From Escherichia coli (lineage in GTDB: Bacteria > Pseudomonadota > Gammaproteobacteria > Enterobacterales > Enterobacteriaceae): a stretch of DNA of 64,000 nt. Each line of letters begins with the position of its first letter. Within the stretch, counting starts at the first letter, position 1. Shown piece by piece: positions 43,501-52,500 of the stretch. The stretch is from NCBI RefSeq assembly GCF_003991155.1, contig NZ_CP031295.1; one strand, given 5' to 3'. The position numbers were made by a program.

Positions 43501-46500
43501 TAACGAGGATGTATCGGTGTGGTGGAACCGTCTGTGTGACAATGTACTGCCGGAAAAAACCATGCCGTTTGACCTGCTGACGGTTCTGCCCACCCGCCTG
43601 GATGTTGAAGTGAATGGCTTTAACGGTGGTGTTCTGAACGGTGTTCCTTCTGCGTATCACTGGTATACGGAACAGTATGGCGTGAAGTGGCCTGTGGGGT
43701 ATGAGGTGAATATCAGCCGTCAGGGAGAAAACTTCATTCAAGTGGATTTCGACACGCCGTGGTGTCAGCCGGAAAGCAACGTTGTTGCAGAATTAAGCCG
43801 CCGTTTCGGCTGCACGCTGGAGCACTGGTACGCCGAACAGGGCTGCAATTTCTGTGGCTGGCAGCGATATGAGCGTGGAGAGCTTGTTGATGTGCTGTGG
43901 GGGGAACTGGAATGGTCTTCCCCGACAGATGATGATGAGCTGCCGGAAGTCACCGCGCCGGAGTGGATAGTCGACAAGGTGGCGCATTACGGGGGATGAA
44001 GTATGACGGAGACGGGCGGGCAACCGCCCGTTTCTTTTCCGACAAAGGATGTCGCCGTGCTCCTCTTTTTACTGCGCCGGCTGACGCGGCGCGGCAGGAA
44101 CGCTGCCTGTGGTCAGTGTCCCGCGTCCGGCGGGCACGGGACGGGCGCTTTTACTGCTCCCGGCTGGCACCGGTGACAGTGTACGCCAGCCTGTCGCCCT
44201 TTTCTGATGAACGCCCTTCAAGCCGCTTTCGCGGCATATTCTCGCCGTCAAAAAGACGACGGCTGCGATATTCCACGGTCGGCCTGACCCGTTACCGGAC
44301 GCGGTGAACAGCCCACAGGCAGCGGGGAACGGGCACCACAGGGGTGCCCTCCCGGTGCCCTCTGTAAGAGAAGGAGCGTTGTTATGTCCCGTTTTGTCCT
44401 TGGTAACTGCATCGATGTTATGACGCGTATCCCTGATAACGCCATTGATTTCATATTAACTGACCCGCCATATCTCGTCGGTTTTCGTGACCGTTCCGGG
44501 CGCACCATCGCCGGCGATAAAACCGATGAATGGCTGCAACCGGCCTGTAATGAAATGTACCGCGTACTCAAAAAAGACGCGCTGATGGTGAGCTTCTACG
44601 GCTGGAACCGCGTCGATCGCTTTATGGCCGCCTGGAAAAATGCGGGATTCAGCGTTGTTGGTCACCTGGTCTTCACCAAAAACTACACATCGAAGGCCGC
44701 ATATGTGGGCTATCGCCACGAATGCGCCTACATCCTGGCAAAAGGCCGTCCACGTCTGCCACAAAACCCGCTGCCGGACGTGCTGGGCTGGAAATATTCT
44801 GGCAATCGTCATCACCCGACGGAAAAGCCCGTTACCAGCCTGCAACCGCTGATTGAGAGCTTCACACACCCGAACGCAATTGTGCTGGACCCGTTTGCAG
44901 GCAGCGGCTCAACCTGCGTCGCCGCCCTCCAGTCCGGACGCCGGTATATCGGTATCGAGCTGCTTGAGCAGTATCACCGTGCCGGGCAGCAACGCCTTGC
45001 CGCCGTGCAACGGGCCATGCAGCAGGGGGCCGCGAATGATGACTGGTTTATGCCGGAGGCTGCGTAAATGAACTATGCCGGACACGAAAAACTTCGCGCC
45101 GACGTGGCGGAGGTGGCCAACACCATGTGTGACCTTCGGGCCAGGCTGAACGATATGGAGCATCGCTGTCGCTTTGATTCCGATGTGCTTGTTGAACGCC
45201 TGACACGCCAGACGCTGTATCGCGCCAATCGCCTGTTTATGGAGGCGTATACCGAAATTCTGGAACTGGATTCCTGCTTCAAAGATTGAGAAGGAGACGA
45301 GAATGTACGGAACATGCGAAACGCTATGCCGGGAGCTGGCAGCAAAGTATCCGGGAGACGCGCCGCTGATGCTGGTTATCTGGTCCCCGGAAGAGATTCA
45401 GGCACTGGCTGACGGTATGGAAATTTCTCTGACCGATCATGAAATCAGGACCGTCCTGGCGCGCATGGAGGACATCCCGGAAGACCAGCGGACTGAATCC
45501 GGTATTTCTTCCGCCGCGGTGATGGAGATTATCAGCAACGTGAGCGAAAACCGCCAGGTGACCGTCCCTGCTGAACTGCTGGCGTCCCTGATTCAGACCG
45601 CTGAACAGGCACTGTGGAAACGTGAGTGGGCCGCCCGTGATAACGGCCTCGCCGTCCCGGAATGCGTTACCCGCCGTCAGGCGGTGGTTAATCAGGCCCG
45701 CACCCTGCTGAAAAACAACACACACGAAAACAACTGATGTTATCGCCGCCTGCCCTGCGGGCGGCGATACAGGGAGAACGCTTAATCATGAACGAAAACA
45801 GCACGCTGAACGCACTGATTTGTCGTCACGCCCGTAACCTGCTGCTGGCGCAGGGCTGGCCGGAAGAGACGGATGTTGACCAGCGAAATCCGAACTATCC
45901 GGGCTGGATCAGCATTTACGTGCGGCTGGATGCGCCCCGGCTGGCGACGTTACTTATCAACCGTCACGGCGGCGTACTGCCGCCGCTCCTGGCCTCCGCC
46001 ATTCAGAGACTGACCGGAACCGGGGCGGAACTGGTACTGTCCGGCAGTCAGTGGCAGTCGCTGCCGGTACTTCCGGCAGACGGAACGCAGGTGTCTTTCC
46101 CGTATGCCGGAGAATGGCTGACCGAAGACGAAATCAGGGCTGTTCTTGATGCGGTGCACGATGCGGTACGAAGCATCTGTTACCAGGTGGCAGAAGATGC
46201 GCGGCGTATCCGTGCGGCGCTGACCACCACCGGTCAGACGTTGCTGACCCGCCAGACGCGCCGCTTTCGCCTGGTCGTGAAGGAAAGCGATCACCCCTGC
46301 TGGCTCGATGAAGATGACGAAAACCTGCCCGTGGTGCTCGATGCCATCGTGAACCGGGGAGCACGTTTTTCGTCGGTGGAAATGTATCTGGTCAGTGAGT
46401 GTATTGAGCATATCCTGTCCAGTGGGCTGGCCTGCGATGTGCTGCGTATACCGGATGAACCGCCCCGCCGCTGGTTTGACCGTGGTGTTCTGCGGGAGGT

Positions 46501-49500: not shown

Positions 49501-52500
49501 CGGAGACGTATAAAAAAGTGCATGATGCCGGTTTCCGCTGGGCACCAAAACAGGCGCTGTTTGTCGCGCCAGCCTGGACACCGGGCCGGGAAGACGTGCT
49601 CCTCTCACTTGCCGGAGAGATTGAGGATGAAGACAGCACGCTCGCTGAACGTCAGGAAGCACGGGCGGAGCGGTTTACCGGATACAGCGGAAAGCGGGCC
49701 AGTGAATCCGCACAGGCACTTGATGAAGTGGAAAGACTGGCCGCGATGATCCCGCCCGGTCAGCCCATTCTTGTGGGGCATCACAGCGAACGCCGCGCCC
49801 GTCGTGATGCGCAGCGTATTGAAAACGGCATGAAACGAGCCGTGATGCTCTTTGAACGTGCGGAATACTGGGAAGAGCGGGCGCGGTCGGCACTGCTTCA
49901 CGCGAAGTATAAAGAACGTCCGGACGTTCGCTGGCGTCGTATCAAAAAAATCGAAGCTGATTTGCGCAAGGCTGAAAAGACCATCGCGCAGTCGCAGAAA
50001 TATCTGACGATGTGGCGGGCTGAATCGCTGGATCTGAATATGGCAAAACTCATCAGCAGTCATGACCATATCAGCGCCTGTTTCCCGCTGGATACGTATC
50101 CGCGCCCGGCAGAAAAAAGCCAGTATGAAGGAAGTCGATCGTTATGGTCGGCCCTGGATGATGACATCATCACCACGGAGCAGGCCCGCGAAATTGCGAT
50201 CCGCTGTCATGAACGGCAGATTCAGCGTCAGCAACGCTGGGTTAACCACTATCAGAACCGCCTGATCTATGAGCGTGCCATGCTGGACGAAAGCGGCGGC
50301 GTGGTTACCCGGACACAGGATTTTGAGCCGGGCGGACAGGTTTTCAGCCGGGGCGAGTGGCTGACTATCATCCGCGTGAACAAAAGCAACGGGGCGGTGA
50401 GTTCAGTCACAACGCCGAATTACAGTTTTCTCGGGTACAGCGGCACGATGAAAGTGACGCCCGATCGCATTACGGACTACAAAGCACCATCGGCAGAAGA
50501 GGCTGCCGTCGCCAGTCAGGCCGCTAAGCGTCCGCCGGTAGTCAACTATCCGGGGGAAGGTTTCCGGGAAATGACAAAGGCACAGTGGGCCGCCCTGCCC
50601 CGGGACTGTAAGGCCGTGCGCAGTGTGGCAGAAGCAGAAGACCACGGGGCATACCGGTACCGCCGCACAATGGACAATAATTTCCGCCTGGTGAATGTGT
50701 ATATCTCCGACATGAAAATCACGGAAATCCCACAGAAATAAGGTATATCCCCCCGGGAAAATCCCCGGGGGATGACGGAGATAATGATATGCACAGTCAG
50801 TTAAGAGAACGTATCCGGCTGATGCGCGCAAGGCTGGATAACGCCGCGCCGGTTGCTGAAATCCGGGCTGAATCTCAGCTTTTTGTGACTCCTGCCCCGG
50901 TCTGTGATCGCCTGGTGATGCTGGCGGAGATCAGCAACCGTGATCACATTCTGGAACCCTCTGCCGGCACCGGGGCCATACTGCGGGCGATTCGGGATAC
51001 CGCGCCGGGGGCCATGTGTGATGCGGTGGAAATCAACAGCGGGCTGGTCCGGTATCTGCGGGAAAATTTTAACGGTGTCAGGGTTCAGTGTGGCGACTTC
51101 ATGGAATGGCAGCCGGTGCAGTATTACAGCCGGGTTATCATGAATCCGCCGTTCAGCCACGGGCAGGATATCCGGCATATCCTGCGGGCCTTTTCCCTGT
51201 TGCGTCCGGGGGGCGTGCTGGTCGCCGTCTGTCTCAACGGACCACGCCAGCAGGAGAAGCTGTTACCGTTTTCTGACGTCCGCGAGGAGCTGCCGCGCGG
51301 CACGTTTGCTTATACCGATGTCCCGACGATGATTATTCGTCTGCGTGCCTGAAGACGCCGGGCAGGCGGGAGGATAAATGCCCGTCTGCCCGCGCCGGGA
51401 AAAGACCGCGCGCCGGTGGCGCTGAAAGGGGCCGCGCTCACGCGCCGCCCCTTTCATTACGCGGACGTTCTGATGGGGGCTTCTGTTTCTTCATGCCTGT
51501 CATTTGTCTGTTACTGATGTTGTTGTTCCTGCTACTGTTCTTCTTTTTCCTGCTGCTCTGATTCTGACTACTGCAGTGTTGTCCTGTCTGCCGGGCGCAC
51601 CTTCGGCTCCCGGCTGCCTGGCGGCATCCGGTCGTCAGGCCCGACTCCGACAGGCAGCTGCTGGCGCACCTGCCAGTCTCCGCCGAACCCGCTGGCGCGG
51701 TTTCGGGCTGTCGCTACGGTCCGATGCGTGAAAACCCCTGGCTTGCAGCGACCGTTCCGGTCGCGCCGCCTCTGTCGCGCCGTGGCCTGCGCTCCTGGCA
51801 TCCCGGCAAAAGACCGCCGGGATGTAAGGGGCAACGCCGTTTCGCAAACCGCGCTTCACGTCGTTGCGGCGGGTCCCTGCCCGTTGTTCTGTCCGGTGCC
51901 ATTCACCTGTTTAAGCCCCTGTCGCCGGGGGCAAAGACAGCCACAACCGTCTCCGCCAGTCCAGGGGTGAAATGTACATCCCGCAAAACTTTTTGCCCAA
52001 AAGCAGGCAAAAACTTTTGCGGGATGTACATTTCACCCCCGGACAGTCGTTTCCGTCCGTGGCAGTGATGCCCCTTGCGGCGAAGGTTCTCAAAAAGGTG
52101 ATGGTGAATACCGGAGGGAACAAAAGGCAGGTCCCCGCAAAACGTCAAAACCGCGGCTCCCGAAACTCAAAAGATGATGGGGGCTGAAAACATCAACAGA
52201 AGGAGGCACATCATGGCAGTTCGTGGCATTAACAAGGTCATTCTCGTAGGACGCCTGGGAAAAGATCCGGAAGTCCGTTACATCCCCAACGGGGGCGCAG
52301 TGGCAAACCTGCAGGTGGCCACATCAGAAAGCTGGCGTGACAAACAGACGGGGGAGATGCGGGAGCAGACAGAATGGCATCGTGTGGTGCTGTTCGGCAA
52401 GCTCGCGGAAGTGGCAGGTGAATATCTGCGCAAGGGCGCGCAGGTCTACATCGAAGGTCAGCTTCGCACCCGTAGCTGGGAGGATAACGGTATCACCCGT

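Follow-up and report, generated by a model that had tools for sequence, protein, structure and literature searches.

Two methylases in the leading region of an IncF plasmid: an M.EcoGIX orthologue and a predicted split DUF3560-methyltransferase

Introduction

Orphan methyltransferases are among the most prominent functions encoded in plasmid leading regions, always on the transferred strand, according to a recent survey (Samuel et al. 2024, PMC11541004). The closest described relative of the first gene considered here is M.EcoGIX, from the IncI1 plasmid pESBL. Deletion of M.EcoGIX lowers pESBL transfer into EcoGIII or EcoRI recipients up to 1000-fold; the defect is confined to restricting recipients and is gone when the donor pre-methylates the DNA (PMC4288162). 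A second study describes a promiscuous enzyme that acts on single-stranded DNA and leaves N6-methyladenine (m6A) at ~40% of SAY sites and on just one of the strands, with an apparent link to DNA polymerase I and a protective effect that depends on oriT orientation (PMC7736820). In a third, the M.EcoGIX operon is one of six that are induced up to ~500-fold no later than 15 min after mating, and it is driven by its own class of hairpin promoter (“class 3”), which is conserved in F and whose transcription start was mapped by rapid amplification of cDNA ends (5'-RACE) (PMC12672017). Here we describe two methyltransferase genes in a 64,000-nucleotide stretch of Escherichia coli DNA (assembly GCF_003991155.1, contig NZ_CP031295.1), hereafter called the window, which is part of an IncF resistance plasmid. 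We refer to the product of the open reading frame (ORF) at 44384-45067 as M1, to that of the ORF at 50789-51352 as M2 or YdcA, and to the 453-amino-acid (aa) DUF3560 protein encoded just before M2 as YdbA.

The second gene has its closest described counterparts elsewhere. EcoKI/TaqI-like DNA adenine methylases are defined by a TP-capped helix before the catalytic core together with an NPP(Y/F) motif (Iyer et al., PMC5512222). A related domain is found in DarB, the anti-restriction protein of phage P1, within the methylase-helicase dyad of polyvalent proteins. DarB is a 2255-aa virion protein that also contains LPD36 and helicase domains, and its motif IV reads NVPF (PMC5512222). We find that M1 is an orthologue of M.EcoGIX, that M2 is probably the catalytic part of a two-gene enzyme completed by YdbA, and that both genes lie on the strand templated by incoming DNA. 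The explanation that best accounts for these observations jointly, to which we assign a probability of roughly 0.65, is that M1 and YdbA-YdcA are establishment functions of the IncF plasmid.

Results

A preliminary description of the window had placed a DPPY motif in the first ORF, assigned to the N6-adenine type, and an NPPF motif in the second. Both ORFs are conserved genes and not chance reading frames, and both motifs are where it put them. In M1, DPPY occupies residues 27-30 (ILTDPPYLVG) and precedes the S-adenosylmethionine (SAM)-binding FxGxG motif (DPFAGSGST, residues 169-177), the layout of beta-class enzymes. Residues 21-201 match Pfam N6_N4_Mtase (PF01555; 1.9e-40), the whole protein matches NCBIfam PRK13699 “DNA methyltransferase” end to end with 501 bits (cutoff 244), and the PADLOC MTase_II model matches at 1.8e-144. 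Aligned without gaps to the pESBL-EA11 methylase (record coordinates 54782-55465), which is the gene named M.EcoGIX in the pESBL transposon-sequencing (Tn-seq) table, M1 is identical at 216 of 227 positions (95%), and none of the 11 substitutions falls in the DPPY or SAM motif.

The M1 family also includes YfeA/YubD of F and M.EcoMVIII of pEC958 (PMC4288162, PMC7736820, PMC4659465). For M.EcoMVIII, an IncF allele, 99% identity has been noted, and no motif was assigned to it in the vegetative methylome (PMC4659465). M1 and M.EcoGIX reside on plasmids of different types, IncF and IncI1, respectively. By analogy with the pESBL orthologue, M1 would be a plasmid enzyme of the M.EcoGIX/M.BceJIII type that methylates single-stranded DNA at SAY and protects it from restriction.

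The same literature suggests a different role, in which the methylases act in plasmid housekeeping (epigenetic control of plasmid genes or replication, or competition between replicons) rather than against restriction. According to PMC7736820, M.EcoGIX lowers the copy number of the DNA polymerase I-dependent ColE1/p15A replicons, associates with that polymerase and suppresses M13, and regulatory roles of plasmid methylases are considered possible (PMC11602122). Against this, restricting recipients are the only ones in which the M.EcoGIX deletion is felt, donor pre-methylation cures the defect, and M.EcoGIX is expressed transiently, coupled to the single-strand stage. We regard housekeeping as an unlikely substitute for anti-restriction, and the two roles may coexist.

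We next consider M2. The protein reads ILEPSAGTGAIL and then VIMNPPFSHG, and its SAM motif is EPSAGTGAI. Models of class I SAM-dependent methyltransferases match weakly (MTS, 1.7e-6), and matches to Erm, KsgA and PrmC in Pfam and NCBIfam stay below threshold. Homologues occur in E. coli, Salmonella, Citrobacter, Serratia, Pantoea, Erwinia and Paramixta, all of ~187 aa and down to 51% identity. Across 26 of them, QLF-x-(T/S)P, EP-x-AGTG and DF are invariant or nearly so, and NPPF (residues 119-122) is present in all but one, which has NSPF. The acidic residue that follows strand 2 and a C-terminal GPRQ...F-YT-V-T segment are kept as well. An AlphaFold (AF2) model, with a predicted local distance difference test score (pLDDT) of 87.6, shows a plain seven-stranded Rossmann methyltransferase that ends at its last strand, residue 187. 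Ahead of the fold lie a low-confidence N-terminal helix and a helix at 36-46, the latter directly after QLFV(T/S)P at residues 30-35.

M2 thus has both the (T/S)P-capped helix and the NPPF motif of the EcoKI/TaqI-like enzymes. M.TaqI is its best solved relative by sequence (3.2e-6 with the single sequence, 1.5e-10 with a family profile) and its top Foldseek match, and HsdM and PacII are among its further relatives. M2 is like M.TaqI and type I HsdM in its X-I-II-III-IV motif order, its TP cap and its NPP(Y/F) motif. It differs from them in that they have a target-recognition domain, either their own or through HsdS, whereas M2 stops with the Rossmann fold: the AF2 model contains no such domain, and annotation and PADLOC reveal no HsdS-like gene nearby. 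These comparisons suggest that M2 is a gamma-class TaqI/EcoKI-like N6-adenine methyltransferase core, with DNA as its likely substrate by homology.

Whether M2 might act on RNA instead bears directly on this assignment. As an RNA adenine-N6 methyltransferase in the style of METTL5-TRMT112, KsgA/Dim1 or Erm, M2 with YdbA would, in the first minutes after entry, reprogram the host through its rRNA or tRNA, or through plasmid transcripts, instead of protecting DNA, and a ranking of M2 by fold does mix RNA and DNA enzymes. Its best sequence matches, however, are DNA enzymes (M.TaqI, DarB, PADLOC type II models, mad2 and PHROG families labeled “DNA methyltransferase”), the TP-capped helix marks the EcoKI/TaqI DNA clade, and the neighboring klcA, ssb, psiB and M.EcoGIX-type genes all deal with DNA entry. 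We judge an RNA substrate to be quite improbable. We are equally doubtful of a broader version, in which YdbA-YdcA is a two-subunit adenine-N6 methyltransferase that is on briefly after entry and modifies host RNA or DNA to disarm or reprogram the recipient.

In PHROGs, M2 matches families of giant phage proteins of 1259-3925 aa, and a tblastn search with M2 found 250 phage records, the best match lying inside a 3066-aa ORF of a Vibrio podovirus. The methylase domain of P1 DarB (residues 73-267) aligns with M2 over 165 columns (hhalign 93.7%, E = 1.9e-7; BLASTP 9e-7). The two share the TP helix, the SAM motif, motif IV and a C-terminal LP-GTF segment, and both are carried by elements that need to survive restriction at entry. 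M2 differs from DarB in being only 187 aa long, in its linkage to DUF3560 rather than to LPD36 and a helicase, and in that we propose it to be made in the recipient. Neither LPD36 nor an SWI2/SNF2-type helicase was matched in M2, in YdbA or in the 48 fused relatives described below.

In PADLOC, the best match of M2 is mad2 of the MADS system (1.2e-20, with its role taken from the PADLOC label alone), followed by type II methylase models. This match would fit a reading in which M1, M2 or both are components of a restriction-modification or other defense system whose nuclease is encoded elsewhere on the plasmid. Among the neighbors on either side of the two genes, however, we found no nuclease or restriction-endonuclease-like gene and no other MADS component by annotation, Pfam or PADLOC, as the preliminary description had held for adjacent restriction endonuclease genes. 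The same result covers the near-identical plasmid p2GS3-tetX4 from its resistance/partition region to oriT, and further upstream the window holds a region of resistance genes and transposons, together with partition genes and umuDC. Moreover, both methylase families are enriched specifically in leading regions and on the transferred strand. Judged from this neighborhood, we give a defense-system role almost no credence.

The neighbor that does accompany M2 is YdbA. A DUF3560 gene lies directly upstream of M2 in three genera, represented by E. coli, Paramixta and Pantoea. The gap between the two genes is the same 47 nt in a Paramixta plasmid whose M2 is 58% identical; in a Pantoea plasmid (L006:6839-8594), the DUF3560 part is itself split, into genes for 191 and 152 aa, ahead of the M2 homologue. 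No M.EcoGIX-type gene lies near the unit in this Pantoea leading region, so YdbA-YdcA is not tied to the presence of M1.

A profile search with M2 against 1.84 billion representative proteins found 8679 relatives at E < 1e-10. Most of the best of these are 570-850 aa long and carry the M2-like domain at their C-terminus. We picked 48 long M2-domain proteins by length alone, without regard to DUF3560, and 45 of them proved to have DUF3560 (PF12083) near the N-terminus. Joined end to end, YdbA and M2 (640 aa) align over their full length with all 48 (41-49% identity for 44 of them, 25-35% for the other four), and YdbA is collinear with the N-terminal two thirds of these natural DUF3560-methyltransferase fusions. 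From this full-length collinear match, we infer that the window holds the split form of a widespread single-chain enzyme. The uncharacterized single-chain proteins are one polypeptide, compared to two genes in the window and three in Pantoea. Some occupy comparable places: one is encoded beside klcB, kleA, ssb, korA and a trfA-like gene on an IncP-like plasmid, and others lie among small early-type genes near integrases and resolvases.

A structure model of the joined protein, built on the 48-protein alignment, has a mean pLDDT of 90.5 and a predicted template-modeling score (pTM) of 0.62. Residues 20-83 form a small alpha/beta domain and residues 88-212 a long bundle of helices that corresponds to DUF3560 proper; further helices (219-304), two beta-rich domains (320-442) and the methyltransferase (454-640) follow. 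Searches with YdbA returned no Pfam match beyond DUF3560, also when three sub-segments were scanned, no PADLOC match and no relative in the PDB, and a profile of the whole fusion alignment returned matches to the methyltransferase domain only. In PHROGs, YdbA falls into two families of unknown function; a viral structure library yielded large phage methylases with low TM-scores. Mentions of DUF3560 in the searchable literature include none that is functional. We propose that YdbA, as a non-catalytic partner, supplies nucleic-acid binding or targeting to a core that has no recognition domain, and M2 expressed without YdbA may well be inactive. METTL5-TRMT112 serves as a working analogy only, being a eukaryotic rRNA enzyme whose TRMT112 subunit is not related to YdbA in sequence. 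Overall, comparative evidence shows the pairing of YdbA with M2, and the complex, its substrate and its protective effect are predicted.

The junction between the two genes has features of its own. The stop codon of ydbA at 50739-50741 is followed by the 47-nt gap, a GGAG ribosome-binding site and the M2 ATG at 50789, in another frame. The gap contains a stem-loop with an 8-bp G+C stem, which Paramixta keeps (L005:7958-7981) by means of a compensatory G:C to A:T change and with a different loop; no T-run follows the stem, hence it is not an obvious terminator. Judged from sequence conservation, the split is stable and looks functional. A less favorable reading is that M2 is a decaying, inactive remnant of a DUF3560-methyltransferase gene that was cut by a stop codon and now hitch-hikes in the leading region. 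The single-chain form is indeed commoner among distant relatives, F and pESBL manage without the module, and truncated and chimeric variants are frequent in databases. However, the split is kept, with its gap, ribosome-binding site and stem-loop, in Paramixta, whose protein is 58% identical to that of E. coli, and the catalytic motifs hold in the 26 homologues down to 51% identity. In addition, the intact pair is present in half of complete E. coli genomes (2731 of 5426, with at least 80% coverage and at least 95% DNA identity). We consider decay highly improbable. M1 is found in 3310 of the same 5426 genomes, and the copies of M1 and of the ydbA-M2 pair are nearly all on plasmids.

We then asked how the two genes are oriented with respect to transfer. 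The F-type nick-site sequence has its sole match in the window on the minus strand, next to traM, so the transferred strand is the minus strand and DNA of lower coordinates enters first. M1 and M2, being on the plus strand, are both templated by the transferred strand, and the same is true of all plus-strand genes between ~43 and 59 kb. M2 lies 8.4-9.0 kb and M1 14.7-15.4 kb from the nick. These positions confirm the leading-region location given in the preliminary description.

Following the recipe of PMC12672017, we scanned the minus strand from 41.5 to 62.2 kb for hairpins, in 300-nt windows with DNA folding parameters and a threshold of -75 kcal/mol. Six stretches in five regions passed: 44050-44380, 5' of M1; 48220-48880, with two stretches; 51160-51490; 51550-52210; and 56950-57610. 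The second, fourth and fifth of these regions coincide with copies A, B and C, respectively, of a repeat described below. The minus strand at 44040-44390 folds to -98.1 kcal/mol (z = -5.8 versus shuffled sequences). This stretch is almost the same in pESBL and F, and in F a compensatory change turns GGGCACC...GGTGCCC in the stem into GGGCGCC...GGCGCCC. A scan for duplex sigma-70 promoters found none before M1. Fold and conservation suggest that 44040-44383 is probably the counterpart of the M.EcoGIX “class 3” single-strand promoter.

We also considered 42740-43075, 5' of the DUF1281 gene, as the M.EcoGIX promoter and rejected it. It folds only to -73 kcal/mol, and we prefer 44050-44380 as the promoter of M1 because that region, unlike 42740-43075, passes the published threshold. 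The rejected segment, which lies between the dinI-like and DUF1281 genes, has 3 differences from pESBL in ~340 positions and may be a further single-strand element. The region 51160-51490 (-83 kcal/mol per 300 nt on the minus strand) reaches from the 3' end of M2 into the stretch ahead of repeat copy B, and stands outside the three-copy repeat family.

Upstream of the M2 unit is a copy of a ~650-nt direct repeat that occurs three times in the window. The repeat itself occupies 48225-48880 (copy A), 51524-52191 (copy B) and 56951-57608 (copy C). F has two Frpo regions, one ahead of ssb and the other ahead of yfjA, and each of the three copies shows homology to both. In copy A, the minus strand at 48560-48890 forms one long imperfect hairpin (-87.5 kcal/mol, z = -10.4), so that this copy combines the features of Frpo/ssi class 1 promoters: homology to F Frpo and a transferred-strand hairpin ahead of genes of the same sense. 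Transcription start on single-stranded DNA has been demonstrated for the F and ColIb-P9/pESBL copies of this class. The genes for a small basic protein (orf76), YdbA and M2 follow copy A, all in the same direction; the gaps that separate them are short and contain no convincing terminator, and by analogy this unit should be transcribed from the single strand via copy A. No sense-orientation sigma-70 promoter was found before it in the duplex scan; the lack of such promoters ahead of M1 and of the M2 unit fits hairpin promoters, but is uninformative. The orf76 product has a sub-threshold HU-like Pfam match only (E = 7e-4, 20.1 bits versus a cutoff of 26.1) and could be a small DNA-binding protein of the M2 unit.

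Copies A and B flank the DUF3560 and M2 module, which is missing from both F and pESBL, two plasmids with published early-transfer transcriptomes. The single ssb-proximal Frpo of F (L004:12980-13650) is a mosaic of these two copies. Alignment columns 401-600, in its center, follow copy A (46/49, 49/50, 50/50 and 39/40 matches), and columns 601-700, at the 3' end, follow copy B (50/50 and 50/50). Such a mosaic is the expected product of recombination between A and B that would delete the 3.3-kb module, although the reverse event, an insertion, may have taken place instead.

Three further observations concern the same genes. A 290-aa protein (P0019), found on 48 contigs, fuses residues ~25-170 of M1 to residues 54-187 of M2, with the junction lying exactly in the SAM-binding motif common to both (LDP-AG-G), giving a product that would carry both DPPY and NPPF. 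This chimera points to deletions between the methylase genes, which would remove klcA, Frpo copy A and ydbA. A chromosomal CRISPR array of E. coli (NZ_CP028743.1) has a perfect 34-nt match in M1 at 44566-44599. Published Klebsiella chromosomal spacers against DUF3560 and SAM-methyltransferase genes have homologous sites at ~49914, 50394 and 51146, with 7-8 mismatches, and a multi-hit spacer reported as “intergenic” pairs with Frpo copy A (48551-48582) at 2 mismatches.

Table 1. Coordinates of the methylase genes and associated features in the window
Feature	Position	Strand	Remarks
Hairpin-prone transferred-strand stretch directly 5' of M1	44040..44383	-	DNA fold, conservation
M1, beta-class N6-adenine DNA methyltransferase	44384..45067	+	M.EcoGIX orthologue (YubD/YfeA/YfbB family), 227 aa
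Three genes 3' of M1	45068..46564	+	73-aa YubE-like; DUF1380 (Pfam 5.5e-53); 275-aa unknown
KlcA/ArdB-type antirestriction gene	46981..47406	+	Between the two methylases; Pfam Antirestrict 1.5e-26; annotated antirestriction protein
Frpo-type (class 1) repeat copy A	48225..48900	-	Upstream of the orf76-DUF3560-M2 unit
orf76, 76-aa basic ORF	49098..49328	+	First gene after Frpo copy A; annotated hypothetical
YdbA, 453-aa DUF3560 protein	49380..50741	+	PF12083 5.1e-37; 47 nt upstream of M2
Stem-loop in the ydbA-M2 gap	50750..50771	+	8-bp G+C stem; read from sequence
M2 (YdcA), predicted gamma-class N6-adenine methyltransferase core	50789..51352	+	187 aa
Frpo-type repeat copy B	51524..52200	-	Upstream of ssb
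Plasmid ssb	52213..52752	+	Pfam SSB 1.4e-37; NCBIfam PRK13732 379 bits
Frpo-type repeat copy C	56951..57620	-	
oriT nick-site sequence	59745..59761	-	Exact match to F-type GTGGGGTGTGGTGCTTT, sole match in window
traM	60075-60458		Next to nick site

Numerous IncF plasmids from E. coli, Shigella and Salmonella are 99.9% identical to a 12-kb stretch around both methylase genes. In our comparison plasmid p2GS3-tetX4 (IncFIA/FIC, MOBF), the annotated order is parM, umuC, umuD and dinI-like, these four on the opposite strand; DUF1281, hypothetical, DNA methylase, hypothetical, DUF1380, hypothetical, antirestriction and DUF1380; and then DUF3560, class I SAM methyltransferase, ssb, DUF905, parB-like, psiB, hok, DUF932, SLT and traM. 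In outline, the leading region of this IncFIA/FIC type runs umuDC, DUF1281, methylase, klcA, ssb, parB-like, psiB, psiA, hok, oriT, traM. The genes that follow M1 keep an order common to pESBL, F and a Paramixta plasmid, and are probably co-transcribed with M1. An IS110-family insertion in p2GS3-tetX4 (L001:26745-27749), between Frpo copy C and the DUF932 gene, is absent from the window (57650-58000) and offsets the oriT of that plasmid by ~1.5 kb relative to the window.

Discussion

Our comparisons support a model in which M1 and YdbA-YdcA serve the establishment of the IncF plasmid, along the following lines. Soon after entry into the recipient, the transferred minus strand would serve as the template for M1 and M2 alike. 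For M1, the hairpin at 44040-44383 in the entering single strand would act as a promoter for host RNA polymerase. M1 would then place m6A on many single-strand adenines, in a loose SAY context and at a fraction of sites, and by the time the complementary strand is made many restriction sites would already be blocked. The Frpo-type hairpin promoter at 48225-48900 would drive orf76, ydbA and M2. M2, as the catalytic subunit, would rebuild with YdbA the ~650-700-aa DUF3560-methyltransferase that is encoded whole elsewhere, and YdbA would contribute the nucleic-acid binding that is missing from the 187-aa core. The resulting enzyme may methylate adenine at N6 and so counter restriction in the manner of DarB, with incoming DNA as its most likely target. 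We see about an even chance that YdbA-YdcA acts on incoming plasmid DNA as a second methylase, one of the DarB class that depends on a partner, and that DUF3560 is a new kind of targeting module.

This model changes the preliminary description in several respects. It had seen both genes as positioned for expression early after entry, consistent with protection of incoming DNA. For M1, this is supported by experiments on the 95% identical orthologue (PMC4288162, PMC7736820, PMC12672017); for M2, it depends on homology and on the Frpo-type repeat. It had also spoken of protective pre-methylation, which does not describe M.EcoGIX: that enzyme acts in the recipient, on the entering single strand, and its methylation is promiscuous (SAY) and partial. 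The view of the two genes as orphans stands insofar as neither has a restriction partner nearby, but M2 is not a lone methylase if, as we propose, it is the catalytic part of a DUF3560 and methyltransferase unit. Finally, it had named the failure to detect a new methylated motif on expression as a refutation. M.EcoGIX shows no motif in its native hosts and has no discrete recognition sequence, so that such an absence would be misleading.

Parts of this picture are already published, namely that leading regions carry two orphan methylases that likely protect incoming DNA, and both families have been catalogued. Among the families of Samuel et al. (PMC11541004), M1 fits family 8 (K07319, 3753 members, median ORF position 21), M2 family 26 (K07317/K00561, 1957 members, position 11) and YdbA family 28 (DUF3560, 1913 members, position 12), assignments that we made by annotation, size and position rather than by sequence look-up. 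We had also considered family 14 (putative methylase) for M2; the table shows it to be YcjA/YcgC, the second DUF1380. The accessible text and tables of that survey draw no functional link between families 26 and 28. In the searchable literature, we found no functional study of plasmid ydcA or of the M2 unit, which is annotated merely as “class I SAM-dependent methyltransferase” beside “DUF3560 protein”. Within that literature, three points appear to be new: YdcA and the DUF3560 protein as a split enzyme, the kinship of YdcA with DarB-type methylase domains, and the bracketing of the ydbA-M2 cassette by Frpo repeats.

Leading-region genes decide the survival of resistance plasmids in their first minutes inside a new host, and a widening of host range against restriction has been demonstrated directly for only a few families, that of M1 among them. 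The split-enzyme view of YdbA-YdcA offers a first functional handle on DUF3560. If the M2 unit covers restriction classes beyond those handled by M.EcoGIX and KlcA, it would help to explain why many IncF plasmids keep both methylases.

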